NCBI GenBank assembly: GCA_964609255.1
Contig: CAZSSS010000001.1
Span: forward strand, 1 to 25,533
Length of the DNA: 25,533 nucleotides
Source of the DNA: an uncultured Rhodobacterales bacterium
GTDB taxonomy: Bacteria > Pseudomonadota > Alphaproteobacteria > Rhodobacterales > Rhodobacteraceae
Reading direction: 5' to 3'
Part shown: piece by piece, positions 8,278 through 23,154 of the stretch
How the letters are laid out: each line of letters starts with the position of its first letter
Numbering within the stretch: position 1 is the first letter of the stretch
Made by a program: the position numbers and the translations under genes
Notes under the pieces: generated by a model
The model's input: the letters and a program-made list of their open reading frames with translations, nothing else
Databases searched by the model: none
What the model was told of the DNA's origin: nothing

Positions 8278-8915
8278 TGACCTTGATTTCAAAAGATTCT
8301 GATCAATTTTGCCATCTATTTGATGTTCCACGTGAAACAATAGAAAAGCTGTCTTTGTTTGAAATCCTGTTAACTAAATGGAATAAAACGATAAATTTGG
8401 TTGCGCCGTCAACTATTCCAAACATTTGGCACCGGCATTTTATTGATTCAGCGCAACTTTTTGCGCATAAGCCAGCAACTGCACATACATGGTTGGACAT
8501 CGGTTCTGGCGCAGGTTTTCCGGCGGTTGTCTTGGCGATTCTATCACAAAACACGGAAAACCCCGTTGAATTCACGTTGGTTGAAAGTGATCAGCGAAAA
8601 TGTGCATTTTTAATGACAGTTTCAAATGAATTAGGGCTGGAATTAACAATTTTACCGGAACGAGTGGAAAGCCTGCCCGCACAGAAATATGACGTAATAT
8701 CCGCACGAGCCGTTGCTTCGGTTGAAAAACTATTGGAAATGTCTGAGCGGTTTGTTGAGCAAAACACGATTTGTTTCTTTCCTAAGGGTGCAAAATACGA
8801 ATCTGAATTGACCGAGGCACGTAAAATTTGGCATATAGAATGCAACCAATTAAAAAGCCTGACCGATGCCAATGCGGTCATTCTTTGCATCGAAAGTTTT
8901 GCGCGTGTCAAATAA
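8274..8915 (+). CDS. rsmG: 16S rRNA m7G527 methyltransferase (GidB)
   Basis: [49 protein letters not shown] and FPKG motifs. Start GTG 8274 or ATG 8277 overlaps the mnmG stop. Confidence 0.96.
8324..8339. promoter_or_regulatory. parS site 2
   Basis: TGTTCCACGTGAAACA fits TGTTNCACGTGAAACA and encodes DVPRET inside rsmG. Confidence 0.88.
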
Positions 8916-9720
8916 TCCTACCAAGCCGCTTAAACAACAGGTCATTGCCGTTTCCAACCAAAAAGGCGGTGTTGGTAAAACAACGACGGCTATTAATTTG
9001 GGAACAGCGCTTGCGGCTATCGGGCGTAAGGTATTGATATTAGACCTTGATTCTCAAGGTAACGCATCAACCGGCTTGGGTGTTTTTCAAAACCAGCGGA
9101 ATGTCACAACCTATGATTTGCTATTGGGCGATGCGGATCTTACGGATGTTAGCCAAGAATCGCCGGTGCCCGGGTTGTTTGTGGCGCCTTCCACGGTCGA
9201 TCTCAGCTCAGCTGATGTTGATCTGGTTGATGATCGAAACCGTGTTTTGCGGCTACGTGAAGCGCTAACATCTGAGGCCGCTAAAAAATGCGCTTATGAT
9301 TATGTGCTTATCGACTGTCCGCCCTCATTGAATTTGTTAACTGTCAACGCGATGGTTGCTGCCAATTCGGTTTTGGTGCCGCTTCAATGCGAGTTTTTTG
9401 CGCTTGAGGGCCTATCGCAACTTATGATGACAATTCGCGAAGTGCGCCAAACGCTTAATCCCGGGCTGGAAATTCAAGGCGTTGTTTTGACAATGTATGA
9501 TGGCCGGAACAACCTGTCGCGGCAGGTTGAGGAGGATGTGCGCCAAAATCTTGGTGAACTGGTTTTTGAGACAACAATCCCGCGAAATATCCGTCTTTCC
9601 GAGGCACCATCACATTCAATTCCCGCGCTTATTTATGACCATAAAAGTTCTGGCGCGATCGCCTATCAGAAATTGGCAGGGGAATTATTACGCCGTGTTA
9701 ATGATCCAATTATTGCCTAA
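8905..9720 (+). CDS. parA: Chromosome partitioning ATPase ParA/Soj
   Basis: NQKGGVGKTTT deviant Walker A, DLDSQGNAS, YVLIDCPPSL, QCEFFALEGL and IPRNIRLSEAPS motifs. Start trimmed to GTG 8905, overlapping the end of rsmG. Confidence 0.96.
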   Translation: MSNNPTKPLKQQVIAVSNQKGGVGKTTTAINLGTALAAIGRKVLILDLDSQGNASTGLGVFQNQRNVTTYDLLLGDADLTDVSQESPVPGLFVAPSTVDLSSADVDLVDDRNRVLRLREALTSEAAKKCAYDYVLIDCPPSLNLLTVNAMVAANSVLVPLQCEFFALEGLSQLMMTIREVRQTLNPGLEIQGVVLTMYDGRNNLSRQVEEDVRQNLGELVFETTIPRNIRLSEAPSHSIPALIYDHKSSGAIAYQKLAGELLRRVNDPIIA

Positions 9721-9735
9721 ACCCGAGGTATCAAA

Positions 9736-10617
9736 ATGACCAAAAAACCAACCCGACGGAGTCTTGGCCGCGGTCTGTCTACGTTGCTGGCAGATGTTGA
9801 TCTGAATGCTGATCGGCCAAGTGCGCATCGACCGATGGGCGAATCCACATTGCCGATTGAACAGTTACACGCCAATCCCGACCAGCCACGGCGGGATTTC
9901 AGTGTTGAAGACCTCGAGGACCTTGCCAACTCAATTCGCACAAAAGGTATCATTCAGCCCCTAATCGTGCGTCCTGACCCAAAAATTAGTGATGAATATC
10001 AAATAGTTGCAGGTGAACGTCGCTGGCGTGCTGCTCAGATGGCGCAAGTGCATAGAATCCCGGTAATTATTCGTCAGCTCGACGACACAGAGGTCTTGGA
10101 GCTGGGAATTATTGAAAATATCCAGCGAGCTGACCTGAATTCGGTTGAAGAAGCCTTGGGCTATCGTCAATTGATGGACCGTTTTGGCCATACGCAGGAA
10201 AAGCTGGCGGTGGCTTTGGGTAAATCTCGCAGCCATATTGCAAACCTTTTGCGTCTTTTGACTTTGCCTGACGAAGTTCTGACATACCTGCGTGAGGGAA
10301 AATTGTCATATGGCCATGCGCGTGCGCTTATTCCGTCGGTTAATCCGGCTGAATTGGCCCGCACAATTATTCGAAAATCGTTGAATGTGCGTCAAACGGA
10401 ACAATTGGCAAAATCTGATGGCACGCAATTGTCGAAAAAACGCCAGCTTCGCCCGGTAAAAGATGCTGATACGCGTGCGATCGAATCAGATCTTCAGGCG
10501 CATTTGAGGTTGAAGGTAAATATTGAGCACCGACATAATTCGGGCACCGGAGAGCTACGAATTTCGTATTCCTCATTGGAGGAGCTGGACGGGCTTTGTC
10601 AGCTCCTCTCAAAATAG
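9736..10617 (+). CDS. parB: Chromosome partitioning protein ParB/Spo0J
   Basis: LGRGLSTLL, NPDQPRRDF, GIIQPLIVR, IVAGERRWRAAQ (CTP-binding), IENIQRADL and HTH KSRSHIANLLRLL motifs. Confidence 0.97.
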   Translation: MTKKPTRRSLGRGLSTLLADVDLNADRPSAHRPMGESTLPIEQLHANPDQPRRDFSVEDLEDLANSIRTKGIIQPLIVRPDPKISDEYQIVAGERRWRAAQMAQVHRIPVIIRQLDDTEVLELGIIENIQRADLNSVEEALGYRQLMDRFGHTQEKLAVALGKSRSHIANLLRLLTLPDEVLTYLREGKLSYGHARALIPSVNPAELARTIIRKSLNVRQTEQLAKSDGTQLSKKRQLRPVKDADTRAIESDLQAHLRLKVNIEHRHNSGTGELRISYSSLEELDGLCQLLSK

Positions 10618-10618
10618 T

Positions 10619-11047
10619 TTAGTTGCGCACAACAAAAACGGATTGTCTGGCATAACGCACGACGCGCGCAGCGTTAGGGCCAAGAACAATATCAGTGCTG
10701 TTGGGCTGATATGATGAAATAACAATAAGGTCAGCGCCCAATTTATCGGCTATCTTATTGATTTCCTTATAGATTGACCCATGCCTAACGTAACAGGTCA
10801 CTTTCTGATCAGCCGGGACATGGTTTCGTGCAACTGCTTTCAGCTCATATTCCGCGTGCTCTATTGCTTTTTGAGCATAGTCTTTGGGAAAAAATGACCC
10901 CACCATGGCCATGCCAAAATCTGGGACAACATTAAATAACAACAGTTCTGCGTTGTCTTCTTTGGCCAGTTTTAGCGCCCTGGGCAGTGCAAGTTTCCAG
11001 GATGGTTCATCGTTAAGATCGATAGGCACAAATATCTTATTAAACAT
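10619..11047 (-). CDS. Universal stress protein, TRAP-associated (TeaD-like position)
   Basis: MFNKIFVPID, HGSIYKEI, ADLIVISS and LGPNAARVVRYA..SVFVVR USP motifs. Lies 11 bp after the TRAP permease; AAGGAG RBS. Confidence 0.88.
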   Translation of the reverse strand: MFNKIFVPIDLNDEPSWKLALPRALKLAKEDNAELLLFNVVPDFGMAMVGSFFPKDYAQKAIEHAEYELKAVARNHVPADQKVTCYVRHGSIYKEINKIADKLGADLIVISSYQPNSTDIVLGPNAARVVRYARQSVFVVRN

Positions 11048-11058
11048 GGTTTTCTCCT

Positions 11059-13680
11059 TTATGCCGTTTGGCTATTTAATTTACGTGCGCGGCCCGATTG
11101 CAAGAACCAGATAAGGGCCAGTAGCATTAATGCTGGAATATAGAACAGTTCTTTTGGCAGGCGTTCTGCGTCGATTTCTACCCGAATCACGTTCCAATAA
11201 AGATCAACACCGCGTTCGTCTGCGAAACTTTGCCCAACTATATTGTTAACAACATAATTGTCGCCGTCCGGTGCAAAAACCACACCAGCTATTTCCTTGA
11301 GCCGCGCGGCGCCATCGCCAATGCTCAATAATCCCAGCGGCAGTTCAAGCGTGGTTTCGGTTTGTCGGAAGGTTCGCGAATGCTCACCCGACATTCGAAT
11401 TCTCAGCACGGCGTCATCGGGCGCTTGGGTTGCCAAACGCTCAATTTCCGAAGCCGGAACAGTCACATAGGGTGCTTCAACCATATCCAGCCAGAATCCG
11501 GGTCGAAACAGGGTGAATGCAATTAATATCAGCGCCAGACTTTCCCAGATTCTTGATTTGGTAATAAACCAGTTTTGGGTTGCGGCGGCAAAAAGCAGCA
11601 TGGCAATAACCGCGATAATAAACACAAAAACCGCTTTCATCGGGGTCACGTCAATCAGCAAAAGTTCGGTGTTAAAGATGAACAAGAATGGCAGAATCGC
11701 CGTCCGCACATCATAACTAAACCCGATCAGGCCGGTTTTAATCGGATCCCCTTTTGAAATCGCCGCCGCGGCAAAGGCCGCCAACCCTACGGGCGGTGTG
11801 TCATCTGCCAGAATGCCAAAGTAAAACACAAACATATGCACCGCAATCAGCGGCACGATCAGGCCTGATTGTGCGCCGACCTCAATAATAACTGGTGCCA
11901 TTAGCGCAGTAATAACAATATAGGTGGCCGTGGTTGGCAGCCCCATGCCCAGAATAAGCGAGAATATCGCCACAAAAATCAGCATAAGCAGCAGCGAGCC
12001 ACCCGATATTGTCTCAATAAATTCGCCAATAACTTGATGCGCACCGGTTAATGTTACCGTGCCAACAATAATACCGGCGGTGCCTGTGGCAACCGCGATC
12101 CCGATCATATTGCGTGACCCGGAAATAAGGCCATCAATCAGTTGGCTCCAACCGGTTTTGATACCTGCGATGATGGCCCCGCTGCCTCGAAACATCGATT
12201 TCAGCGCGTTTTGGGTTATGGCCACAAATATCATGGCGATGGTTGCCCAAAATGCTGACAGCCCCGGTGAGAACCGTTCAATCATCAGACACCAGATAAG
12301 CACCACAACCGGCAGGCCGTAATAATACCCGGTCTTGGCAACATCGCCTGCAACAGGCAATTCCAGCAAGGGTTCGTCGGGGTCATCAACCACCAGATCG
12401 TCATACTTGGACGCCATATAAATAAGGCCAAGATAGGCAATCAGGAATACCACGGCCATGCCATAAACGGTATAATCACCAAACATGGGTTTTAACCAGC
12501 CAAGCCCGTAATAAACCCCGAGCGATAGCGCGATAAACACCAAAAATCCAAAAACCACGCTCATCAGACGTTGGGCTTTGGTGCGGTGATCACCCGGGCG
12601 AGGCATGCCCTCAAGGCCCATTTTGCAGGCCTCAAGGTGCACAATATAAACCAGCGCGATATAGCTGATAATCGCTGGCAGGAATGCGTGTTTGATAACC
12701 TCAAGATAAGGGATACCGACATATTCGATCATTAGAAATGCTGCTGCCCCCATCACAGGTGGGGTTAATTGACCATTGGTTGACGATGCAACCTCAACCG
12801 CGCCAGCTTTTTCGGCTGAAAACCCAACGCGTTTCATCAACGGAATGGTAAATGTGCCGGTGGTAACGGTGTTGGCAATGCTTGAGCCAGAGATCAGGCC
12901 AGTGGCGGCAGATGCCACCACGGCGGCTTTGGCCGGCCCGCCTTTTAGATGCCCCATCAGGGCAAAAGCAACTTTGATAAAATAATTCCCTGCTCCGGCT
13001 TTTTCAAGCAATGATCCAAACAGAACAAACAAAAATACCATAGAGGCCGAAACGCCCAGTGCTTGGCCAAATACGCCCTCGGTCTGCATCCAGAAATGCC
13101 CCATAGCTTTCTTAAAGCTGGCACCTTTCCATTGCATTGCATCGGGAATGAACTGTTGATCGCCAAAGAAAACGTAAATCAGAAAGAACCCGGCAACAAT
13201 GACCATTGGCAGGCCCAGCGCGCGATAGGTCGCGATTAACACAATCGTCAGACCAATTGCGGAAACAATCTGGTCTTTTGCAGTCCAGATACCGGCTGTA
13301 TCAGCGATCGCTTGTTGTGAAACCACAATATAGACACAGACCGAAACACCAGCCAGCGCCAGCACCCAGTCATAGATTGGAATATTGGTTTTGGATGACC
13401 CTTTGAACAACGGAAACGCAGTGCAGGCAAGGAACAAGGCAAAGGCCAGATGAATGGCGCGGGCTTTGGTGGAATCAACCACGAAAAAGCTTTGTCCGGT
13501 CCATGCGTTCAGATCAAACGGCAGGTTTGATGCGATATAAAGTTGAAAAATCGCCCAGGTTAAAGCAACCGATGTAATCAGTTTACCTTGCCATCCTATG
13601 GGGTTACGCGCGCCAACATCCAAATCGGCTGCCATTTCGGCGGCATCGATTCCGTTACCAGTATCTGTTGAATCTGTCAT
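11059..13680 (-). CDS. TRAP transporter 4TM/12TM fused permease with C-terminal extension (DUF3394-like)
   Basis: 873-aa highly hydrophobic protein with GGPAKAAVVAS, SGSSIANTVTTG, EVASSTNGQLTPPVMGAAAF, LGMGLPTTATY and ADDTPPVGLAAFAAA signatures. Confidence 0.93.
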   Translation of the reverse strand: MTDSTDTGNGIDAAEMAADLDVGARNPIGWQGKLITSVALTWAIFQLYIASNLPFDLNAWTGQSFFVVDSTKARAIHLAFALFLACTAFPLFKGSSKTNIPIYDWVLALAGVSVCVYIVVSQQAIADTAGIWTAKDQIVSAIGLTIVLIATYRALGLPMVIVAGFFLIYVFFGDQQFIPDAMQWKGASFKKAMGHFWMQTEGVFGQALGVSASMVFLFVLFGSLLEKAGAGNYFIKVAFALMGHLKGGPAKAAVVASAATGLISGSSIANTVTTGTFTIPLMKRVGFSAEKAGAVEVASSTNGQLTPPVMGAAAFLMIEYVGIPYLEVIKHAFLPAIISYIALVYIVHLEACKMGLEGMPRPGDHRTKAQRLMSVVFGFLVFIALSLGVYYGLGWLKPMFGDYTVYGMAVVFLIAYLGLIYMASKYDDLVVDDPDEPLLELPVAGDVAKTGYYYGLPVVVLIWCLMIERFSPGLSAFWATIAMIFVAITQNALKSMFRGSGAIIAGIKTGWSQLIDGLISGSRNMIGIAVATGTAGIIVGTVTLTGAHQVIGEFIETISGGSLLLMLIFVAIFSLILGMGLPTTATYIVITALMAPVIIEVGAQSGLIVPLIAVHMFVFYFGILADDTPPVGLAAFAAAAISKGDPIKTGLIGFSYDVRTAILPFLFIFNTELLLIDVTPMKAVFVFIIAVIAMLLFAAATQNWFITKSRIWESLALILIAFTLFRPGFWLDMVEAPYVTVPASEIERLATQAPDDAVLRIRMSGEHSRTFRQTETTLELPLGLLSIGDGAARLKEIAGVVFAPDGDNYVVNNIVGQSFADERGVDLYWNVIRVEIDAERLPKELFYIPALMLLALIWFLQSGRARKLNSQTA

Positions 13681-13737
13681 TTTGTTCCCTATCGTTCTAT
13701 AAAACCCAGCCGATATGTTTCAGCTTTTGGGTAAAGA

Positions 13738-13761
13738 GGTGAGGCCCGACCGGGCCTCACC
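13738..13761 (-). terminator. GC-rich stem-loop between the TAXI gene and the permease (weak terminator or mRNA-stabilising hairpin)
   Basis: GGTGAGGCCC-GACC-GGGCCTCACC, a 10-bp stem 9 nt after the TAXI stop, followed on the minus strand by only TCTTTA. Confidence 0.6.
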
Positions 13762-13770
13762 AAGAGGAAA

Positions 13771-14736
13771 TTAATCCATTAATCCAAGTTCCTGATACGC
13801 ACGGATCGCACCGGGGTGCAATGGCGCGGACAGGCTGTCGCGGATCATTTCTTCAGCTTTGAGGTTGGCAAATGCAGGGTGCAGTTTGCGGAAATCCTCT
13901 AGGTTGCCCAAAACAGCCAAGGCTACTTGGTAAACCGCTTCCTCAGACACGCTTGCGGATGTCACAAAGGTTGCGCCAACACCAAATGTCTGGATGTCGT
14001 CAGGGTTGCCCGGATACATGCCGCCCGGAATTGTGGCGTAACGATAATAATCGTTGGCCTCAACCAAAGCGTCAATTTCTGGCGAAACAGCTGGCACAAT
14101 AATCGCATCACAAGATGCAATGGTTTCTTGTGTCAGGCCGGATGGGTGACCCACCAACCAGAAATAACCGTCGATTTTGTTGTCGCAAAGTGCGCCAGCA
14201 GTTTCAGACGATTTCATGCCGGACGCCAGCGCCAGATCTTCACGAGCCCAGCCCATGGCACCTTCAATAACTTCCCATGTGCCCAATGTGCCCGAACCCG
14301 GGTTGCCAATATTAAAGCGTTTGCCCGGAATATCGGTGATATTGTTGATACCCGAATCGCGGCGCGCCAAGATGGTTACAGGTTCAGCGTGAACCGAAAA
14401 CACAGCGCGAAGATCTTCAAATGCGCCCTGTTCTTCGAATTTCGACGTGCCGTGATAGGCATGGTATTGCCAATCTGACTGCGCCACACCAAATTCCAAT
14501 TCGCCTTCGCGAATGGTGTTGATATTATAGATAGAGCCACCGGTTGATTCAACCGAGCAACGGAATCCGTGTTCAGCACGGTTTTTGTTGACCAAACGGC
14601 AAATCGCGCCGCCAGTTGGGTAATAAACCCCTGTCACACCGCCGGTGCCGATTGAAATAAATTGTTGCTGCGCAGCGACAGAGCCGCCCAAAGCACCAAC
14701 AACGGCTGCTGCAAGTGTAATATGTGTAAGTTTCAT
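13771..14736 (-). CDS. TAXI-family TRAP transporter solute-binding protein
   Basis: Signal-peptide-like N-terminus, then FISIGTGGVTGVYYPTGGAIC, STGGSIYNI, VAQSDWQYHAY, NIGNPGSG and APLHPGAIRAY motifs. Confidence 0.95.
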   Translation of the reverse strand: MKLTHITLAAAVVGALGGSVAAQQQFISIGTGGVTGVYYPTGGAICRLVNKNRAEHGFRCSVESTGGSIYNINTIREGELEFGVAQSDWQYHAYHGTSKFEEQGAFEDLRAVFSVHAEPVTILARRDSGINNITDIPGKRFNIGNPGSGTLGTWEVIEGAMGWAREDLALASGMKSSETAGALCDNKIDGYFWLVGHPSGLTQETIASCDAIIVPAVSPEIDALVEANDYYRYATIPGGMYPGNPDDIQTFGVGATFVTSASVSEEAVYQVALAVLGNLEDFRKLHPAFANLKAEEMIRDSLSAPLHPGAIRAYQELGLMD

Positions 14737-14781
14737 TCTTTTCTCCCAATAGACATATGTATTTTCTTACATGTTGCCATC

Positions 14782-14810
14782 CTAATATTTGTCGTCTAGG
14801 CGACATTCAA
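14782..14810 (-). promoter_or_regulatory. Candidate sigma70 promoter for TAXI-TRAP-USP with a 16-bp palindromic operator in the spacer
   Basis: Minus strand reads TTGAAT-N17-TATTAG. The palindrome TGTCG-TCTAGG-CGACA occupies 14790-14805. Confidence 0.5.
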
Positions 14811-14846
14811 GGTAAACGATGGCGTTTCGACCCCGAAATTAGAATT

Positions 14847-16454
14847 CTAAAAAGCCCCCGCATACTGGGTTTTATCGATGCGACAAGCAAGTAAACTGAA
14901 ATTTTTTGAACAGAGTGCACTATTTAGAGCGTTTTTCAACGATTTACTAGAATCAACCCAAACGGCGTTGCCGCCATAGGCGTTTACTATACTCACAAAA
15001 TCCGTTGACGCAAAATCTACTCCCAGATTGGGCAGGTTGCTTCGGCTTTGTTTAAGTTCAATGAGTGACAGCGACTGGTCAACCAGCAACACAACTATGA
15101 CCGGTAAGTGCATGTCGCGCAAGGTTGCCAGTTCTCCGATTACCATTTCCAAACCGGCATCGCCAATAAATGCGATAACTTTTGGACCATTTGGTCCGGC
15201 CGCCTTGGCATAACCAATGGCCAATGGCAGGCTGATGCCCATGGTGCAAAAACAACTGGATTGCAGCAAGGTTTGCGGCGCCAGACAGTGCCACATCTGG
15301 GATAGTAGAATCCGGTGTGCGCCGCTATCGGCAACAGCGATTGATCCGGCGGGAATAGTGTTTTGGATGGTGGCAAAAACAGTGTGCGGGCCCCATTCAG
15401 CACGGTCAGAAAACATGTCCTGCAGGGCGGTTTTGACGATGGATGGTTCACCATTAACCCAAGATTGCCCATGGGATGTTGTGTTTGATAAGGCCGCGAT
15501 GGCATTGGCAACATTGCCAATAAACCGCACCGCACTTCCGTGCATACCGTGTTGAATATCCGCATGGCTGATATCAATCGCAACGGTTGCATGCCACGGT
15601 TCGATCCAGCCGTTGCGCATTTCAATGGGGTCATAGCCTGCCAGAATGATGCAATCAGACTTGGCCAATAGCGGCAAAACCACCGTATCCGACAAAGGCG
15701 AAAGCCCGTGCCCGCCCAGCGATAACGCATGATCTTCGGGGATGATTCCCTTGGCCTTATAGGTGGTCAAAACCGGGATATTACGGGTTTCTGCCAGCGC
15801 CAGAATTGCGGCACCCGCATGGTGATGCACTGCGCCAAGGCCTGCCAAAATAATTGGCCGCCCAGCGTTTGCCAGCATTTTTCGGGCTTTGGCCAGCCCA
15901 TCGTCTTCAGCCCAGTTTACAGCGGCAGGGTATTGCAACGCGCGTTCAATCACCTGAATTTCAGATGGCGCAATATTGTGCGGAACATCCACATGAACCG
16001 GTCCCGGCGGGTCGGCTTTGGCGATTGCTATGGCTTTTTCAATCATGGCTTGGGCGCTGCCCTCACCAATTTGAAACTGTGCTTTGGTGATCGGGGCCAT
16101 TAAGGCGCTTTGGTCGATCACTTGATGGGTGAAACTGGCGGCCTCGGTGGCGGTGATACAGCCCGACAAAACAATCATCGGAACCTGTTCCTGAAACGCA
16201 TTGGCAACCGAGTTCAGCCCGTTGGCCAACCCCGGCCCGATCGTAGTCAGCAATATCGCTGGTGCGCCAGTGGCATGATATGTCCCCTCAGCCATGTATC
16301 CGGCGTTGTTTTCATGCTTGCACAGTGAAAATTCGATCCCAACCTGATCCAATGCTTGCATCAGCACCAAAACCTCGCCGCCGGGCATGCCAAATGCGTG
16401 GCGACATCCGGCATCATGCAGCTTTTGCGCAATGATTTCTGCGGCTGTGGTCAT
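14847..16454 (-). CDS. ThDP-dependent enzyme, acetolactate synthase/decarboxylase superfamily; substrate unknown
   Basis: AFGMPGGE, KHENNAGYMAEG (catalytic Glu), TIGPGLAN, PPGPVHVDVP, DSGAHR and MGISLPLAIG motifs. The ThDP motif reads GDA-x24-VD. ATGA overlap with acd. Confidence 0.85.
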   Translation of the reverse strand: MTTAAEIIAQKLHDAGCRHAFGMPGGEVLVLMQALDQVGIEFSLCKHENNAGYMAEGTYHATGAPAILLTTIGPGLANGLNSVANAFQEQVPMIVLSGCITATEAASFTHQVIDQSALMAPITKAQFQIGEGSAQAMIEKAIAIAKADPPGPVHVDVPHNIAPSEIQVIERALQYPAAVNWAEDDGLAKARKMLANAGRPIILAGLGAVHHHAGAAILALAETRNIPVLTTYKAKGIIPEDHALSLGGHGLSPLSDTVVLPLLAKSDCIILAGYDPIEMRNGWIEPWHATVAIDISHADIQHGMHGSAVRFIGNVANAIAALSNTTSHGQSWVNGEPSIVKTALQDMFSDRAEWGPHTVFATIQNTIPAGSIAVADSGAHRILLSQMWHCLAPQTLLQSSCFCTMGISLPLAIGYAKAAGPNGPKVIAFIGDAGLEMVIGELATLRDMHLPVIVVLLVDQSLSLIELKQSRSNLPNLGVDFASTDFVSIVNAYGGNAVWVDSSKSLKNALNSALCSKNFSLLACRIDKTQYAGAF

Positions 16455-17644
16455 GGCATGTATCCGTCGCGGCTTTGCGGTAATTTCATGTCCAGAATTT
16501 TCCCAGCAATGAGATTGCGCAGCATTTGCGCTGTGCCGCCACCGATCGTAAACATACGCGCGTCGCGCACCATTCGTTCCAGCGGCAAGTTGCGGGAATA
16601 TCCGGCTGCGCCGTGTAATTGCAGCGCATCATTGCTGACTTTGACCGCAGTTTCTGAGGCGGTAAGTTTGGCCTGCGCTGCCAATAAAGGGTCTGGAAAG
16701 CCGCTTTTTGTGTGTTCAGCACTTGCAGCGGCGCGCCAAATCATCATTCTGGCCGATTCAAGCGCCACATTCATATCCGCCAGCATCCATTGCAACCCTT
16801 GAAATTCGGCAATCGGACGGCCGAATTGTTCTCGCATTTTTACAAAATCCAAGGCTTGTTCATAGGCACCGGCCGCGATGCCCAGCGCCACGGTTCCCGC
16901 ACCAACCCGCTGACCGTTATAGGCGTTCATCAATCCGGCAAAGCCGCGTTTAACACCACCGGGCGGGATAAGCGCCATGCTGGCATCGATCTCCATATTG
17001 TCAAAAATAACTTCGGTTTCGGGAATTCCGCGCAGGCCCATAGCCGGTTCGCGGGTGCCAATTTTCAGCCCGTCATCCTCTCCGCGCACCGCAATAAACC
17101 CGCCAATGCCCAGCCGTTCGCCGTTTTCCTCAACCTGCGCAAAAATCAGATGCGTCTTGGAGACACCGCCGCCGGTAATCCAGTGTTTGACGCCATTAAG
17201 AATATATTTATCAGCCCGTTTAACCGCCGTGGTTGTCATTTGTGTTGCCGCAGATCCCGACCCCGGTTCAGTAATGCAAATCGCCGGTTTGTCCCCGGCC
17301 AAAATCAATGGCGCAATTCGATTTATCTGAGCATCAGAGCCATAAGCACAAATCGCGCCGATTGCGCCCATATTGCCCTCAACCACAATGCGCGCCGTAA
17401 CTCCGCATGTTTTTGCCAGTTCCTCAACCACCAACACAACATCCATATAAGAACAACCCATTCCGCCGTATTTCTTGGGAATAGTCATGCCCATGAACCC
17501 CGCCTCGGTCAGGGATTTTATGTTATGCCACGGGTATTCTTCGCTGCGGTCAACATCCGCTGCGCGCGGGCCGATAACATCTTTTGCCAGTTTTCGCGCG
17601 GCGTCCCGAAGCAACAATTGTTCATCCGTTAGGTAAAACATCAT
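16451..17644 (-). CDS. acd: Acyl-CoA dehydrogenase-fold protein, probable 3-sulfinopropanoyl-CoA desulfinase
   Basis: ACAD fold lacking both canonical catalytic Glu positions (YNGQR instead of xxER; FTIGGGTAQ instead of YEGTxQ). ARIVVEGN, KPAICITEPG, WITGGGVSK and the C-terminal KILDMKLPQSRDGY match the Advenella mimigardefordensis AcdDPN7 sequence as recalled. Start 17644 (ATGA overlap) or 17641. Confidence 0.82.
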   Translation of the reverse strand: MMFYLTDEQLLLRDAARKLAKDVIGPRAADVDRSEEYPWHNIKSLTEAGFMGMTIPKKYGGMGCSYMDVVLVVEELAKTCGVTARIVVEGNMGAIGAICAYGSDAQINRIAPLILAGDKPAICITEPGSGSAATQMTTTAVKRADKYILNGVKHWITGGGVSKTHLIFAQVEENGERLGIGGFIAVRGEDDGLKIGTREPAMGLRGIPETEVIFDNMEIDASMALIPPGGVKRGFAGLMNAYNGQRVGAGTVALGIAAGAYEQALDFVKMREQFGRPIAEFQGLQWMLADMNVALESARMMIWRAAASAEHTKSGFPDPLLAAQAKLTASETAVKVSNDALQLHGAAGYSRNLPLERMVRDARMFTIGGGTAQMLRNLIAGKILDMKLPQSRDGYMP

Positions 17645-18831
17645 TTGTCCCCGCGCCCCAGCCATTCATCCAATACCTCGTTTGTATTGGCCCCGCAAAG
17701 CGGCGGTGGATTACGGTATGTTACTGGCGACGCTGAAAATTTAACCGGATTACCGATAAGATCAACGGAGCCACCCAGATGCGCCATAGAAATTTTCATG
17801 TGCCGCGCCGCGACCTGATCGCTGTTGAAAACCTCAGCCAGATTGTTGATTGGCCCACAAGGCACCAAGCCTGCACTTAACCGAGATTCAAGATCAGCCT
17901 TTGCAAATGCTTTAATCACCGGAACCAGCAATTTTATCAGCGCATCGCGGTTGATAATGCGCTGCGGGTTTGTTGAATACAGGGCATCATTGGCCAGCGC
18001 GGATTGCCCGATAATATCACAAAACCGCTGGAATTGTTCATCATTTCCAACTGCTATCAAGATATGCCCGTCGCTGGTTTCAAAGGCTTGGTAAGGCACG
18101 ATATTTGGGTGCTGATTGCCGCGTCGCTGTGGAATGTCGCCTGATAACAGGTAATTCGTGCCTTCATTTACCAACCATGCAACCTGACAATCGACCAGTG
18201 CAATATCAATATGCTGCCCTTCTCCGGTTTGGTCGCGGTGCCGCAGGGCTGCCAGAATTGCGGTGGTGGCATACATGCCGCACATCACATCAGCAATGCC
18301 TACGCCAACTTTCATCGGTTCACCATTTGGCGCGCCGGTCAGGCTCATGATGCCGCCATACCCTTGCGCCATCAGATCATAGCCCGGCAAATGCGCGTTG
18401 GGGCCAGTTTGGCCGTATCCCGTAATGGAGCAATAAATCAGCCGGCTATTTATTTTCTTAAGGCTGGCATAATCCAGCCCATATTTTTTCAACCCGTTCA
18501 GCTTGAAATTCTCGATGAAAATATCGCTGACTTTTGCAAGATCCCGAATGGTTTTTGCGCCAGCTTTGGTGGTTATATCCACCCCGACCGAGCGCTTGTT
18601 GCGGTTTGACGACAGGTAATAAGCGCTTTCACTGGTTGGGCTGCCATCCGTTGCCGGAACATAGGGCGGCCCCCATTTTCGGGTATCATCCCCCATGCCG
18701 GGCCGCTCTATTTTTGCAATATCAGCGCCATAATCGCCCAGTAATTGCGTGCAGGTCGGCCCCGCCAAAATCCGCGAAAGGTCAAGCACCTTAAGCCCAT
18801 GCAGGGGACCATTTTTTGATTGATGCGCCAA
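17641..18831 (-). CDS. CaiB/BaiF family-III CoA-transferase (SUGCT/Act-like; probable succinyl-CoA:dicarboxylate-analogue transferase)
   Basis: VLDLSRILAGP, GDDTRKWGPP, YYLSSNRNKRS, YCSITGYGQTGP, GVGIAD (catalytic Asp) and HPNIVPYQAF motifs. TTG start. Confidence 0.88.
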   Translation of the reverse strand: MAHQSKNGPLHGLKVLDLSRILAGPTCTQLLGDYGADIAKIERPGMGDDTRKWGPPYVPATDGSPTSESAYYLSSNRNKRSVGVDITTKAGAKTIRDLAKVSDIFIENFKLNGLKKYGLDYASLKKINSRLIYCSITGYGQTGPNAHLPGYDLMAQGYGGIMSLTGAPNGEPMKVGVGIADVMCGMYATTAILAALRHRDQTGEGQHIDIALVDCQVAWLVNEGTNYLLSGDIPQRRGNQHPNIVPYQAFETSDGHILIAVGNDEQFQRFCDIIGQSALANDALYSTNPQRIINRDALIKLLVPVIKAFAKADLESRLSAGLVPCGPINNLAEVFNSDQVAARHMKISMAHLGGSVDLIGNPVKFSASPVTYRNPPPLCGANTNEVLDEWLGRGDK

Positions 18832-18868
18832 ATCGGTATTTTCCAGAGTCGTTACTCCGACAGATTAC

Positions 18869-18881
18869 TTAAATTTGTTAA
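18869..18881. promoter_or_regulatory. Candidate LysR recognition box (T-N11-A with dyad)
   Basis: TTAA-ATTTG-TTAA in the 116-bp divergent CoA-transferase/lysR intergenic region. Confidence 0.45.
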
Positions 18882-18947
18882 ATATAAAAGTTACTTTTTG
18901 TCGAAAATTGGCTGGTTAGTTTACCAAAACTAAACTAAACACCCTTA

Positions 18948-19826
18948 ATGAATTTACAGCAAATCAAAACGCTTGTCGCCATCATGGAGGAAGGCAGTTT
19001 TTCAGCCGCTGCTGAGCGGTTAGGGCTAAGCCATCCGGCAATTTCCCTACAAATCCGGCATCTTGAGCAGGAGTTTAACCGACCAATATTTGATCGATCT
19101 ACCCGGCCGCCGACCTTTACCGAAACAGGGTTGCGCGCCGCAGAAGCCGCACGACAATCGCTGGAAACTATTGCAAACATTACGTTAATTGGTTCGGGTA
19201 AACATCACACAGATACGTTGACCGTTGGGGCGGTGCCCACCGTTTTACAAGACAGCCTGCCTGTGATTTTGCGGAAAATTCAACTAAAACAACCCAACTT
19301 GCAGGTTAAAGTGCGGTCCGGCTTGTCCAGTGATTTAACTTCGCAAGTTTTAAACAGGGAAATCGATGTGGCGTTGGTCACTGGCCCTATTGCGCAATTT
19401 CCTGAATTGGACATTGTGCCGCTGGCCAAGGAACCGCTTTTTGTTATTGCTAACAAAGACATGCAGGGTTTGTCGGAAATTGACCTGTTACAAAGCCAGA
19501 CATTTATCGCATTTTCCTATAAAACCCTGTTGGGGCAGCAAATTTCGCAACAACTTCGAAAACGCAATATTTTTGTCAAAGAAAGCATGGAGGTCGATTC
19601 CGTTGCCGCGATCGAAAGTTTTGTGCGCGAAGGTTTTGGCGTCTCCATTGTTCCGCAACGGTATCTGGCCCCTGAGTTGTCAGATTATCTGACCCTTGTG
19701 CCGTTTTGTGAACCACAAGATTATCGCCAGCTTGTTGCGGTGTCCCTTAAGGACAGGTATCTGACAAACGGTATTCCGATTATTCATCGCGTAATTTCCG
19801 ACCTTAGAAAAGCATCGCGGCGCTAG
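18948..19826 (+). CDS. LysR-family transcriptional regulator
   Basis: N-terminal HTH MNLQQIKTLVAIMEEGSFSAAAERLGLSHPAISLQIRHLE, FDRSTR, 292 aa, divergent from the CoA-transferase operon. Confidence 0.95.
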   Translation: MNLQQIKTLVAIMEEGSFSAAAERLGLSHPAISLQIRHLEQEFNRPIFDRSTRPPTFTETGLRAAEAARQSLETIANITLIGSGKHHTDTLTVGAVPTVLQDSLPVILRKIQLKQPNLQVKVRSGLSSDLTSQVLNREIDVALVTGPIAQFPELDIVPLAKEPLFVIANKDMQGLSEIDLLQSQTFIAFSYKTLLGQQISQQLRKRNIFVKESMEVDSVAAIESFVREGFGVSIVPQRYLAPELSDYLTLVPFCEPQDYRQLVAVSLKDRYLTNGIPIIHRVISDLRKASRR

Positions 19827-19837
19827 GCTGTTGGCTG

Positions 19838-20206
19838 TTATTTTTCCGGTCGTGACCAGATAAATATTGCTGCGCCAAGCAGGCAAACCGCTTGAATCGC
19901 CAAAAATACTAGGGGGACCGTCAGGGTAACAGCCAGCCCAAGCGACGCCAGCATTGACACACTAGCATAAAATTTAACCCGGCGGCTGATGGCGCCGTTC
20001 TTTTCCCAATCCAGAATGGGAGGGCCGAAATATTGATGACTTATCAGCCAGTTATGCGTTTTGTCCGAAGATTTCCCAAATCCAATTGCTGCCAAAAGCA
20101 AAAACGGAACAGTTGGCAATATCGGTAGAAATATTCCGACTATGCCTAGCCCCAGTGCAAAAATACCAAGTAAAAACCAGAATATCCGTAAAATATCCTT
20201 GGTCAT
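19838..20206 (-). CDS. ybaN: YbaN/DUF454 inner-membrane protein
   Basis: LGIVGIFLPILPTVPFLLLAA, HQYFGPPILDW and GAISRRVK motifs. ATGA overlap with hemW. Confidence 0.88.
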   Translation of the reverse strand: MTKDILRIFWFLLGIFALGLGIVGIFLPILPTVPFLLLAAIGFGKSSDKTHNWLISHQYFGPPILDWEKNGAISRRVKFYASVSMLASLGLAVTLTVPLVFLAIQAVCLLGAAIFIWSRPEK

Positions 20207-21357
20207 AACAGCTCCCTCAGGATGCCGTTAAGCAATGGTTTACCTTTGGCGGTGCTGCGTAAATTTCCGCGGTAATTCTCGATTAACCCGTCGCTGGTCA
20301 AATCGTTAATAACGCTGGTTTTCAGTTTGGTTTTTGCCAATGATTCATATCGCGCAAGGTCCGCGCCTTCATTCAGACGCATCGACATCATCAGATATTC
20401 AATCGCTTGGTCAGTAGTGCTAAGCCGTTCAAATTCTGCCCGGCCAAGCCCGGTTTTTTTTACCTCATCCAGCCATTTTTCCGGCGATAAATGGGTGCTG
20501 CTGGCGAATCTCTGGCCATTTATGGTCAGGCGGCCATGGGCGCCCGGCCCGATGCCGGCGTAATCACCGTAACGCCAATAATTCAGATTGTGCAGACATT
20601 CTTTGCCATTTTTGCAGTGGTTTGAGGTCTCATACCCCGCCATTCCCGCCGCGCCGCAGATATCCTGAGTGGCAAAATACATGTCGGTCGCAATCGCTTC
20701 GTCGGGCAGGTTACGCAGTTTTCCGCGATTATAAAGATCACCAAAACGGGTGCCGTTTTCGATGGTTAATTGATATAATGACAGGTGGTCAACGGCCATA
20801 TCAATGGCCTTTTTCAGCTCATTGCACCAGTTTTCCAATGTTTGATTTTGCCGCGCGTAAATCAGATCAAAACTAACGTTTGAGAAATATTTCTTAGCAA
20901 TATCAAATGCTTTTATCGCATCCTCAGCAGAGTGCATGCGCCCCAGCGCCTTTAGATCCGTGTCATTCAGCGCCTGAATGCCCATCGATAAACGGTTTAT
21001 TCCCGCATCAGAAAACGCCGCAAACCGCCCGGCCTCAACCGATGTCGGGTTGGCTTCCATGGAAATTTCTGCGCCGGGGTTCAGGCCCCAAACTTTGTTA
21101 ATCTCGGCAATTATGATGGTGATGGTTTCGGGGGGCATCAGGCTCGGGGTGCCGCCGCCAAAGAAAACCGTATTAACATCGCGTGGGCCGGTGATTTTCG
21201 CGGTTTCGCGAATTTCGCTCACTAATGCATCGCGCCAAGCGGTTTGATCAATGTCAGCCCGAACATGGCTGTTAAAGTCGCAATAGGGGCATTTTGCCAA
21301 GCAAAACGGCCAGTGGATATAGACGCCAAATCCGGAATTTTGCCAGTCGTTGATCAT
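20203..21357 (-). CDS. hemW: Radical-SAM heme chaperone HemW (HemN-like)
   Basis: YIHWPFCLAKCPYCDFNSH, FGGGTPS, EANPTS, HLSLYQLTIE, HNLNYW and GIGPGAHG motifs. 384 aa, next to rdgB. Confidence 0.93.
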   Translation of the reverse strand: MINDWQNSGFGVYIHWPFCLAKCPYCDFNSHVRADIDQTAWRDALVSEIRETAKITGPRDVNTVFFGGGTPSLMPPETITIIIAEINKVWGLNPGAEISMEANPTSVEAGRFAAFSDAGINRLSMGIQALNDTDLKALGRMHSAEDAIKAFDIAKKYFSNVSFDLIYARQNQTLENWCNELKKAIDMAVDHLSLYQLTIENGTRFGDLYNRGKLRNLPDEAIATDMYFATQDICGAAGMAGYETSNHCKNGKECLHNLNYWRYGDYAGIGPGAHGRLTINGQRFASSTHLSPEKWLDEVKKTGLGRAEFERLSTTDQAIEYLMMSMRLNEGADLARYESLAKTKLKTSVINDLTSDGLIENYRGNLRSTAKGKPLLNGILRELL

Positions 21358-21740
21358 CCTTGAAACGCTGTGACCTCTATTTCGATTAACATTTCCGGTT
21401 TGATCAGCCCTGCGATGATCATGGTTGCTGCGGGGCGAATATCGCCAAGATATTTGCTGAAAACAGGCGACAGGCTGTCAACCAGATCGGAGCGAATAAC
21501 CGTATACTGAACCCGCGCGATGTCGGCCATTTCGAATTTGGCTTCGGCCAGCACTTTTGCGATGGTTTCAAAACAATTGCTGGCCTGCTCAACGATCAGC
21601 TCGGGCATTTCCATTGTGGTATAATTATACCCCGTAACGCCGGATACAAAACACCAATCGCCCTGCACCACAGCGCGGCTATATCCCATGGTTTTTTCAA
21701 ACGGAGATCCGGTGCTAATAAGTGTGCGTTCAGATTTCAT
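21354..21740 (-). CDS. RidA/YjgF/UK114-family protein
   Basis: GSPFEKTMGYSRAV, FVSGVTG, IRPAATM and EIEVTA motifs. Start set at ATG 21740 (ATGA overlap with the rdgB stop). Confidence 0.88.
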   Translation of the reverse strand: MKSERTLISTGSPFEKTMGYSRAVVQGDWCFVSGVTGYNYTTMEMPELIVEQASNCFETIAKVLAEAKFEMADIARVQYTVIRSDLVDSLSPVFSKYLGDIRPAATMIIAGLIKPEMLIEIEVTAFQG

Positions 21741-22348
21741 GTTGAAAAACATCCCCTTACGAGTTTTCGAAACGCGTCAGCGCGGTGGCTTATTTCGTTT
21801 TTCTCCCAGCGGTCCATCTCACCGAATGTGATGTCAAAACCGTTTGGCTGGAAAATCGGGTCATAACCATGGCCCTCCTCTCCCTTCATTGGCCAGACAA
21901 TTTGCCCGTCGATTTTGCCTTCAAAAACCTCGTCATGGCCATCAGGCCACGCCAAAACCAAGGTGCTGCAAAATCGGGCGATGCGCGGAAACGGTGCGTT
22001 AACTTCTTCTAGTTTGGCCCAGGTTTTGGTCATCGCCATAACAAAATCACGGCCATTCGGGGTTTCGGCCCAGTCGGCTGTGTAAACGCCCGGCGCGCCG
22101 CCTAAACCGTCGATCTCAATGCCGCTGTCATCCGCCAGCGCGGGCATGCCAGATTTTTTAGCAGCATAATGCGCCTTTATCCGGGCATTTCCGATAAAGT
22201 TATCTTCGGTCTCAACGGGTTCGTCAAAACCCAATTTGCCCGCAGAAACGGTCGAAATCCCGAAAGGTTGCATAAGCCGCGCAATTTCCTCCAACTTTCC
22301 TTGGTTATGGGTGGCTACAACCAGCTTTTCGGATTCAAACTTACGCAT
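21737..22348 (-). CDS. rdgB: dITP/XTP pyrophosphatase (HAM1 family)
   Basis: [32 protein letters not shown] and SHRADAF motifs. Confidence 0.95.
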
Positions 22349-23057
22349 TTACCGCTGCTTTTTGCGTCAAAACCAGCTCTGCCACGCCTTTTTCGGCCAA
22401 ATCCATTAGTTGGTCAAATTCTGCGCGGCTAAATGTTGCGCCCTCAGCAGAGCCTTGGATTTCGATCAATCCCTTATTGTCCGTCATTACAAAATTCGCA
22501 TCCGTGCCCGCGTCGCTGTCCTCAGGATAGTCCAGATCAAGCACCGGAACGCCGCCGTAAATTCCGCACGAAACCGCCGCAACATGGCTGGTTAGTGGAT
22601 CATCCTTAATATCGCCTGCTTTCAGCAATGCATTTACCGCCAGCCGTAACGCCACCCAACCACCAGTGATTGAGGCGCAGCGCGTGCCACCGTCAGCCTG
22701 AATAACGTCACAATCCACCGTGATCTGACGCTCCCCCAATGCTACGCGGTCAACACCAGCCCGCAAGCTGCGCCCGATAAGCCGTTGAATTTCTTGTGTT
22801 CTTCCAGATTGTTTACCCGCCGTCGCCTCACGCCGCATGCGTGATCCGGTGGAGCGTGGCAGCATGCCATATTCCGCCGTGACCCAGCCCAAACCAGAGT
22901 TGCGCAACCAAGGCGGCACGCGCGTTTCCAATGACGCGGTGCATAAAACATGGGTATCACCGCATTTTATCAGGCATGATCCTTCGGCATGTTTGGTGAC
23001 GTTTGTTTCGATCACAATATCGCGCATTGTGTCGTTGGTTCTACCGGATGGGCGCAT
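22341..23057 (-). CDS. rph: Ribonuclease PH
   Basis: [39 protein letters not shown] and [13 protein letters not shown] motifs. Start trimmed to ATG 23057 (AGGAG RBS). Confidence 0.97.
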
Positions 23058-23125
23058 GGGTATTCTCCTGATTTTGTTGAATATGCTCATACAGCGGCAC
23101 AACCAAGAGGTCCAGCATCCTTGCA

Positions 23126-23154
23126 TTGACGCTGCCCCTTAGAATGCTTAAATT
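23126..23154 (+). promoter_or_regulatory. Candidate sigma70 promoter for hrcA
   Basis: TTGACG (23126-23131), 17-nt spacer, TAAATT (23149-23154), ending 9 nt before the hrcA ATG. Confidence 0.55.

Follow-up and report, generated by a model that had tools for sequence, protein, structure and literature searches.

We analyzed a 25,533-nucleotide stretch of DNA from an uncultured Rhodobacterales bacterium (here, the window), in which a minus-strand gene at positions 14847 to 16454 encodes an unnamed thiamine diphosphate (ThDP)-dependent enzyme. The gene directly follows that of Acd, the desulfinase that releases sulfite from 3-sulfinopropanoyl-coenzyme A (CoA). We predict that the enzyme is a nonoxidative 2-oxo-4-sulfinobutanoate decarboxylase of the 2-oxoglutarate decarboxylase type, feeding the CoA-transferase (Act)/Acd route, and we put the probability of this reading at roughly 55%. 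Three independent lines of evidence support it: the gene content of orthologous operons, a match at three active-site positions to the cyanobacterial 2-oxoglutarate decarboxylase MaKGD, and the ligand pocket of the solute-binding protein (TAXI) encoded in the same operon. The first-pass annotation of the window had proposed decarboxylation of this 2-oxo acid toward 3-sulfinopropionate, and its proposal passed each test open to comparative genomics and residue analysis, gaining support from these lines of evidence and from the linkage to Acd.

In the predicted pathway, a TAXI-TRAP transporter would import a glutamate analog, most likely L-homocysteine sulfinate. A transaminase encoded outside the window (of the aspartate type in the betaproteobacterial and actinobacterial operons described below) would yield the 2-oxo acid, and the ThDP enzyme would split 2-oxo-4-sulfinobutanoate into CO2 and 3-sulfinopropanal. 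A succinate-semialdehyde-type dehydrogenase, encoded elsewhere in the organism, would oxidize the aldehyde to 3-sulfinopropionate, a family III CoA-transferase would convert the acid to 3-sulfinopropanoyl-CoA, and Acd would cleave the thioester to sulfite and propionyl-CoA. By chemical reasoning, 3-sulfinopropionate would arise in this way from homocysteine sulfinate and from no other amino acid. Our analysis establishes gene identities, operon structure, conserved neighborhoods, and residue patterns; the substrate, the aldehyde, and the imported compound are deduced from these.

The minus-strand frame of the ThDP gene encodes 535 amino acids with no internal stop codon; the plus-strand frame is full of stops. 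The protein carries all three Pfam domains of ThDP enzymes, TPP_enzyme_N (PF02776; E = 9e-32), TPP_enzyme_M (PF00205; E = 7e-22), and TPP_enzyme_C (PF02775; E = 1e-25). The reading frame and the motifs listed in the first-pass annotation could be read off the translation. The catalytic glutamate lies in the segment LCKHENNAG, where E48 aligns with the catalytic Glu of Bacillus subtilis AlsS (ARHEQNA). The metal-binding motif (segment IGDAGLEMVIGELATLRDMHLPVIVVLLVDQ) consists of G431-D432-A433, 24 further residues, and V458-D459, and G431-D432-A433 and D459 are invariant in 64 context-classified homologs. The segment AGYDPIEMR occupies residues 272 to 280. The likeness to catabolic acetolactate synthases that had been noted for the metal-ligand Asp and the GY.P.E segment is sound, since the AlsS profile aligns end to end and has GYDPIEY, and an Asp 27 residues past the GDG aspartate, at the same positions. 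The protein is thus of the pyruvate oxidase/acetolactate synthase type, with PYR, middle, and PP domains, the catalytic Glu, and the metal motif.

No NCBIfam acetolactate synthase equivalog cutoff was reached by the protein. Its best score was to PRK08322 (327 against a cutoff of 509), and it fell short of the AlsS equivalogs NF006378 (262.5 against 510) and TIGR02418 (234.2 against 551.1) and of the biosynthetic acetohydroxyacid synthase equivalog TIGR00118 (258 against 538). Among solved structures, its nearest relatives are the catabolic acetolactate synthases (E of about 1e-50), followed by oxalyl-CoA decarboxylases and 2-hydroxyacyl-CoA lyases (about 1e-33). The AlphaFold model (pLDDT, 82; pTM, 0.85) had AlsS as its top fold match, with a TM score of 0.83 and about 24% identity, and 2-hydroxyacyl-CoA lyase/synthase structures were also among the good matches. 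As stated in the first-pass annotation, no small regulatory subunit gene lies near the ThDP gene. No ACT-domain gene does either: its neighbors encode Acd, the CoA-transferase, a LysR-family regulator, the TAXI protein, a TRAP permease, and a universal stress protein. Neither the window nor any of the more than 85 loci inspected has an acetolactate decarboxylase or acetoin gene.

The minus-strand operon runs in the order CoA-transferase, Acd, ThDP enzyme, TAXI protein, TRAP permease fused to DUF3394, and universal stress protein, with the LysR gene divergent. The product of the gene at 16451 to 17665 (minus strand) scored 647.8 bits against the NCBIfam equivalog NF042439 (cutoff, 600) and matched Acd of Advenella mimigardefordensis (PDB 5af7) with an E value of 3e-147. 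Equivalents of Arg84, which we take to bind the sulfinate, and of Gln246, presumably a further functional residue, are kept. The segment GGGTAQ stands at the catalytic-Glu site of dehydrogenases, and the catalytic Glu is absent, as we assume it to be in desulfinases. Judged by these scores and residues, the protein is a genuine 3-sulfinopropanoyl-CoA desulfinase. The listed Acd reading frame starts eight codons upstream of the start backed by alignment; because the alignment with 5af7 begins at residue 9, the true start is likely the ATG at 17641. This start overlaps the stop codon of the CoA-transferase gene in TGATG, and the Acd stop overlaps the ThDP start in ATGA. These overlaps indicate translational coupling among all three genes.

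The CoA-transferase gene (17641 to 18831, minus strand) belongs to family III (Pfam CoA_transf_3; E = 2e-121) and matches SUGCT-like structures in the PDB. Among NCBIfam models, it comes closest to succinate-glutarate CoA-transferase (480 bits, under the cutoff of 750), and it scored 229 against the formyl-CoA transferase model (cutoff, 442). The LysR-family gene (18948 to 19826, plus strand; Pfam HTH_1 and LysR_substrate) probably encodes the operon regulator, and a LysR gene occupies the same divergent place in Acidovorax, Rubrivivax, and Streptomyces as well as at many related loci. The 116-bp AT-rich region between the divergent genes (18832 to 18947) presumably serves as promoter and operator. 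Promoter and terminator scans of positions 10400 to 19100 did not rise above the expectation from shuffled sequence (13 versus 11.0 and 17 versus 11.9, respectively).

To place the enzyme in its family, we scanned GTDB representatives (one genome per species) and obtained at least 598 confirmed matches, of which 80 loci were kept and, with the window, gave 81 aligned sequences. Gene neighborhoods were determined by tblastn and clustering of open reading frames, and the context labels were placed on a neighbor-joining tree. The family is large and unnamed, its members being annotated "thiamine pyrophosphate-binding protein," and many of the matches come from marine Rhodobacterales, Hyphomicrobiales, Rhodospirillales, and SAR324. 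The Acd gene occurs within 8 kb of the ThDP gene in 33 of the 81 aligned sequences, almost always directly upstream and co-oriented and usually together with the CoA-transferase. These 33 belong to Rhodobacterales, Rhodospirillales, Hyphomicrobiales, gammaproteobacterial metagenome-assembled genomes (MAGs), SAR324, and Cupriavidus, and look-ups beyond the aligned set found the same linkage in Acidovorax, Rubrivivax, and Streptomyces. The link between the enzyme and Acd is therefore real and extends across phyla. The most constant neighbor is the CoA-transferase, whose gene adjoins that of the ThDP enzyme in about 46 of 77 loci, and the closest Acd-linked loci (about 14) also share the TAXI, TRAP, and universal stress protein genes.

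Orthologous operons in other lineages carry further enzymes. Acidovorax sp. NCPPB 4044 has a single co-directional operon of genes for an aminotransferase, the CoA-transferase, Acd, the ThDP enzyme, two TctC proteins, an M20 protein, an aldehyde dehydrogenase, and a PF03601 protein, with LysR divergent. Here the aminotransferase is nearest to aspartate transaminase (NCBIfam, 470 bits), the aldehyde dehydrogenase belongs to the succinate-semialdehyde dehydrogenase (SSADH) subfamily (TIGR01780, 658.8 against a cutoff of 646.35), the M20 protein falls among ArgE-type deacylases, and the PF03601 protein falls in the YeiH putative sulfate exporter family (NCBIfam). On plasmid pBB1 of Cupriavidus necator N-1, genes for LysR, the CoA-transferase, Acd, TctC, a permease, and a second LysR are followed by those for a class I/II aminotransferase, the ThDP enzyme, an aldehyde dehydrogenase, and an M20 hydrolase. 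This ThDP enzyme is 46% identical to the window protein and is encoded 5 kb from the CoA-transferase and Acd genes; the neighboring aldehyde dehydrogenase is SSADH-like (606 bits, just under the cutoff of 646). Rubrivivax and Streptomyces have the order aminotransferase, CoA-transferase, Acd, and ThDP enzyme with LysR divergent, and Comamonas has genes for an aminotransferase, the ThDP enzyme, and TctC. An SSADH partner thus occurs in the Acidovorax operon and beside the Cupriavidus gene and is absent from the window and the marine loci. Taken by their predicted functions, the genes of these operons would encode exactly the steps that convert a glutamate-like amino acid first to a 2-oxo acid, next to an aldehyde, and then to a succinate-like acid, followed by its CoA ester and finally sulfite.

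When the Cupriavidus aminotransferase, aldehyde dehydrogenase, and M20 proteins were searched against the 80 loci by tblastn, only two distant aldehyde dehydrogenase matches about 9 kb away were found, indicating that the marine clusters have no local copies of these genes. Five of the closest marine clusters end in a class III aminotransferase gene (PRK07483, 743 bits; L001, 9961 to 11286; L002, 16587 to 17918; L003, 11700 to 13031; L010, 17602 to 19083; L011, 481 to 1812), which in L003 directly follows the ThDP gene and in L001 and L002 is preceded by a gene resembling that of the 3-keto-5-aminohexanoate cleavage enzyme. We left this aminotransferase out of the pathway, as it is absent from the window and other genes intervene in some loci. 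Two single loci carry other additions: a pyridoxal phosphate-dependent decarboxylase fragment of the Orn/DAP/Arg type between the Acd and ThDP genes in a gammaproteobacterial MAG (L004, 9240 to 9995) and an Asp/Glu racemase-family gene after the ThDP gene in a Hyphomicrobiales MAG (L057, 7946 to 8689). Both are possible accessory steps for amino acid substrates.

The second line of evidence is the active site. Relative to AlsS, the family differs at four positions. Lys40, Gln424, and Gln487 (B. subtilis numbering), which we take to be active-site residues, are replaced by E27, C403, and K468, respectively, and the Ala of the AlsS segment SHAI is replaced by R381. In the comparison with AlsS suggested in the first-pass annotation, the overall fold agrees best with AlsS, but the active site departs from it at these four positions.

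MaKGD is itself acetolactate synthase-like and accepts 2-oxoglutarate only. Its authors list E50, Q254, H385, K386, A408, M410, D435, D462, Y465, L467, K471, and Y531 as surrounding the substrate and cofactor, and docked 2-oxoglutarate receives a salt bridge from K471 and hydrogen bonds from K386 and Q254. The MaKGD sequence was available to us as local segments (mutagenesis primers and the deposited model), and the correspondences given here are limited to these segments. The primer segments SNGFAAMG, TGDGGFM, and NDGGYGLIEW align with SSCFCTMG, IGDAGLEM, and VDQSLSLIELK of the ThDP protein, and the model segments GLPGEENL, SHQ.LD, and VGLQ align with GMPGGEVL, THQVID, and HGLS. MaKGD residues E29, E50, H112, H385, and K386 correspond to E27, E48, H110, H380, and R381, and M410, D435, D462, L467, and K471 correspond to M405, D432, D459, L464, and K468; Q254, A408, and Y465 differ. 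Three of the four positions that set the family apart from AlsS therefore match MaKGD (E27/E29, R381/K386, and K468/K471, the last in a common LIExK motif). R381 and K468 are cationic and appear to be placed to hold a distal anionic group. Together, the three matches and the two cationic residues point to a decarboxylase for a 2-oxoglutarate-shaped substrate. By itself, the active-site match cannot separate a carboxylate from a sulfinate substrate.

Further features are shared with the cyanobacterial OgdA/KGD enzymes (Sll1981, SynPCC7002_A2770, and MaKGD), which, like the ThDP protein, are acetolactate synthase-like, have about 540 residues, and have no reported flavin requirement. In both MaKGD and the ThDP protein, a Glu follows PG (E29/E27), an AH[KR] motif and a cofactor-supporting Met are present, the Asp metal ligand lies 27 residues past the GD[GA] aspartate, and LIExK occurs, whose Lys in MaKGD is docked on the distal carboxylate. 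A succinate-semialdehyde-type dehydrogenase accompanies KGD in cyanobacteria and, for the ThDP family, is encoded in the Acidovorax and Cupriavidus clusters but not in the window or the marine loci. The two differ in KHENNA/RHEQGA, GDAG/GDGG, VDQSLS/NDGGYG, C403/T404 versus A408/A409, and S252/Q254, and in gene partners, which are Acd, the CoA-transferase, and an aminotransferase for the ThDP gene and tricarboxylic acid cycle genes for KGD.

The third line comes from the transporter. The TAXI-family solute-binding protein (13771 to 14736, minus strand; TIGR02122, 318 bits) is a homolog of the Vibrio cholerae glutamate binder VcGluP (PDB 8s4j; E = 2e-121; tblastn identity, about 58%). VcGluP is glutamate specific: it binds L-glutamate at 65 nM but neither 2-oxoglutarate nor aspartate. 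In its published ligand contacts, S40 and Y200 order waters around the side-chain carboxyl (PMC11574862). In the TAXI protein, the ligands of the alpha-amino group and of the alpha-carboxyl group are conserved (Y45, S75, Q93, E125, and G156), and the side-chain pocket is altered (S40G, D157T, Y200W, and M201L). All four substitutions occur in 12 of 13 cluster-linked TAXI proteins. Because the alpha ligands are kept and the side-chain pocket is substituted, the imported compound is most likely an L-alpha-amino acid that is glutamate shaped with another distal group, which would fit homocysteine sulfinate or homocysteate. A subgroup of glutamate-type TAXI proteins is marked by G at VcGluP position 40, T at 157, W at 200, and L at 201, and its genes always adjoin the Acd/ThDP genes (the window protein and those of L001, L002, L004, L006 to L010, L013, L045, and L053). 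The fused TRAP permease with its C-terminal DUF3394 (11059 to 13680, minus strand; TIGR02123, 637 bits; Pfam DctM and DUF3394) is conserved together with the TAXI gene among the nearest loci. The last gene of the cluster encodes a universal stress protein (10619 to 11047, minus strand; Pfam Usp) and is kept directly after the permease in about 10 related loci.

The known 3-sulfinopropionate pathway of A. mimigardefordensis and Variovorax paradoxus uses 3-mercaptopropionate dioxygenase (Mdo), SucCD or Act, and Acd. The window shares with it the CoA-transferase and Acd core and a LysR regulator. The feeder differs: the known pathway is fed by the dioxygenase, whereas the window has none, and here a decarboxylase would feed the core from a C4 amino acid. 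Transport also differs, with TAXI-TRAP in the window and TctC in the known pathway. In V. paradoxus TBEA6, the mdo/act/acdA cluster contains a possible ortholog of the window protein, a "putative acetolactate synthase IlvX" (VPARA_05550), near genes for a semialdehyde dehydrogenase and a 2-hydroxy-acid dehydrogenase; the authors assign IlvX no role (PMC6370202). Its abundance increased 3.9-fold on thiodipropionate and 6.8-fold on 3-sulfinopropionate (PMC6370202). Our full-text searches found no paper on bacterial homocysteine sulfinate catabolism (only mammalian and chemical papers) and none on a ThDP enzyme tied to Acd.

Several observations weigh against the assignment as a 2-oxo-4-sulfinobutanoate decarboxylase. 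Deletion of IlvX left growth of V. paradoxus on thiodipropionate unchanged (PMC6370202), although thiodipropionate would bypass the decarboxylase anyway. The window encodes neither an aminotransferase nor an aldehyde dehydrogenase, and both must therefore be encoded elsewhere in the organism. The comparison with MaKGD consists of short primer and model stretches and docking, not a crystal structure, and in the literature searched we found no documented natural source from which marine bacteria would obtain homocysteine sulfinate. In addition, the ThDP gene has a second setting: in 31 of the 81 aligned sequences (about 40%), its neighbors encode a membrane acyltransferase with an OpgC domain, a TPR protein, and an esterase of the PHB depolymerase family, and Acd is not encoded within 8 kb. 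Finally, the predicted active-site residues are identical in the OpgC- and Acd-linked members. In the set of 64 homologs, E27, H47, E48, H110, Q111, R280, H380, R381, C403, M405, D432, D459, K468, Q469, and Y531 are invariant in both groups, and the sole discriminating position is T123/V. The family may thus act on a more general substrate, such as 2-oxoglutarate itself.

The OpgC setting occurs in Roseibium, Pseudovibrio, and Yoonia and on plasmids of Rhizobium, Sinorhizobium, and Bosea (loci of this type include L017 to L019, L024, L027, L029, L036, L052, L067, L073, L078, L082 [7042 to 12959], L083, and L085). The CoA-transferase accompanies the ThDP gene in most of the 31 loci, which often also hold genes for a YedE-like protein, DUF302, and glucan synthesis (mdoG/mdoH). 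The Rhizobium and Bosea plasmid loci add YHS-domain, DsbD/DsbA, and CopD genes.

The main rival is a general 2-oxoglutarate decarboxylase that forms succinate semialdehyde, like cyanobacterial OgdA/KGD; we regard it as improbable but worth serious consideration. In that case, the enzyme would be tied to Acd indirectly, for instance by supplying succinate or succinyl-CoA to the CoA-transferase, and in the OpgC-linked clusters it would feed the succinylation of periplasmic glucans. The identity of the active sites in Acd- and OpgC-linked members is the strongest argument for it, and the KGD-like E27, R381, and K468, the SSADH-type dehydrogenases of the Acidovorax and Cupriavidus clusters, and the homology of OpgC proteins to succinyltransferases all fit. 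A 2-oxoglutarate decarboxylase would, however, leave unexplained the translational coupling with Acd, the joining of aminotransferase, Acd, and sulfate exporter genes in one Acidovorax operon, and the altered side-chain pocket of a glutamate-type TAXI protein. The segments in which the enzyme differs from MaKGD, including S252/Q254, also speak against it. The enzyme may accept both the sulfinate and the carboxylate analog.

A sulfonate-level route is less probable still. Here L-homocysteate would give 2-oxo-4-sulfobutanoate, which the ThDP enzyme would convert to 3-sulfopropanal, followed by 3-sulfopropanoate and its CoA ester. All of the context evidence fits this route equally well, since homocysteate is also a glutamate analog. 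However, Acd is a close ortholog of an enzyme characterized with a sulfinate and lacks the catalytic base that, by our reasoning, sulfite elimination from a sulfonate would need, and the cluster encodes no desulfonating enzyme.

A reaction on a CoA thioester provided by the neighboring CoA-transferase, like that of oxalyl-CoA decarboxylase (Oxc) working with formyl-CoA transferase (Frc) or that of 2-hydroxyacyl-CoA lyase, seems unlikely to us. The constancy of the family III CoA-transferase as a neighbor does recall Frc/Oxc, and the enzyme also shows good fold matches to 2-hydroxyacyl-CoA lyase/synthase structures. Yet acetolactate synthases clearly give the better sequence matches, the enzyme stands nearer to them and to KGD than to Oxc, and the CoA-transferase resembles SUGCT and Act, not Frc. 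The aminotransferase and SSADH partners, moreover, indicate a free 2-oxo acid and a free aldehyde, with decarboxylation presumably preceding CoA transfer. Cleavage of the 2-hydroxyacyl-CoA lyase type had been offered in the first-pass annotation as one alternative and Xsc-like C-S cleavage as another, and neither is favored by the results.

At a similarly low level of likelihood, the ThDP enzyme and the CoA-transferase might form a portable module that, with a housekeeping aldehyde dehydrogenase, makes 3-sulfinopropanoyl-CoA for two uses. Acd would consume the thioester in one setting. In the other (Roseibium, Yoonia, Pseudovibrio, and the Rhizobium and Sinorhizobium plasmids), an OpgC-type acyltransferase would take the acyl group, giving an unreported sulfinate-bearing decoration of periplasmic glucans.

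It is very doubtful that the substrate is a thiol or thioether 2-oxo acid (2-oxo-4-mercaptobutanoate or 4-methylthio-2-oxobutanoate) derived from homocysteine or methionine, with 3-mercaptopropionate then oxidized by a dioxygenase to 3-sulfinopropionate. The V. paradoxus cluster does join a ThDP enzyme with a 3-mercaptopropionate dioxygenase gene, but inspection of the window and of the Acidovorax, Rubrivivax, and Streptomyces operons revealed no thiol dioxygenase, and the cationic R381 and K468 and the glutamate-type TAXI protein favor an anionic distal group.

We give equally little credence to an ordinary catabolic acetolactate synthase or other carboligase, or to an Xsc-like C-S-cleaving enzyme. 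AlsS is the best fold and sequence match, and AlsS/BudB enzymes share with the ThDP protein THQ..D, GYDPIE, the Asp metal ligand, and the lack of a regulatory subunit; against this stand the scores far below the AlsS equivalog cutoffs, the K40E, Q424C, and Q487K changes and added Arg381, and the lack of an acetoin pathway neighbor, with neither acetolactate decarboxylase nor phosphotransacetylase (Pta) encoded beside the ThDP gene in any locus examined. Like Xsc, the enzyme would serve organosulfur catabolism that ends in sulfite release. In this case, however, the C-S bond would be cut by Acd, and a sulfinate two carbons from the ThDP-bound carbon cannot, by chemical reasoning, be eliminated in the manner of Xsc. 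The only Pta gene found, in Rubrivivax, adjoins a separate Xsc-like gene. No Xsc model occurs among the 25 listed of 52 NCBIfam families, and by sequence the enzyme is probably not an Xsc. The Rubrivivax pair, a 609-residue Xsc-like ThDP enzyme (L091, 15851 to 17638) and phosphotransacetylase, lies about 6 kb from the operon of aminotransferase, CoA-transferase, Acd, and ThDP genes, which suggests a wider organosulfur catabolic region.

If the enzyme is indeed a 2-oxo-4-sulfinobutanoate decarboxylase, it would provide a second entry to the only known desulfinase pathway, from an oxidized amino acid rather than from 3-mercaptopropionate, and thereby an undescribed bacterial route for mineralizing homocysteine-derived sulfinate sulfur to sulfite. 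It would also give a first function to a large family of unnamed "thiamine pyrophosphate-binding proteins" and suggest a specific candidate ligand for one distinct subgroup of the poorly understood TAXI-TRAP transporters. As the cluster is present in several cultured strains, with Acidovorax sp. NCPPB 4044, C. necator N-1, and Marimonas arenosa KCTC 52189 as candidates, the prediction is directly testable.

Housekeeping genes of an alphaproteobacterial origin region flank the operon: one flank carries rho, mnmE, mnmG, rsmG, parA, and parB, and the opposite flank carries DUF454, hemW, Rid, rdgB, rph, hrcA, and grpE. The composition of the window is uniform (GC content, 46 to 54%), with no island signature, and Rfam and tRNA scans of the window returned nothing. 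The DNA comes from an epibiont metagenome, for which a search of sequencing runs returned one DNA run and no RNA. At the maf/hemE intergenic region (1946 to 2193), DnaA boxes cluster upstream of hemE (1922 to 2125): perfect boxes (TTATCCACA) lie at 1922 to 1930 and 2041 to 2049, and a box with one mismatch lies at 2117 to 2125. The GC skew turns from negative to positive at this cluster, which, at about 2 kb, probably marks the chromosomal replication origin. From the universal stress protein gene to rph (10619 to 23126), all genes apart from the divergent LysR gene lie on the minus strand and the GC skew is negative, so that they are oriented head-on relative to the origin at about 2 kb. Possible reasons are an inversion or a skew that tracks transcription.

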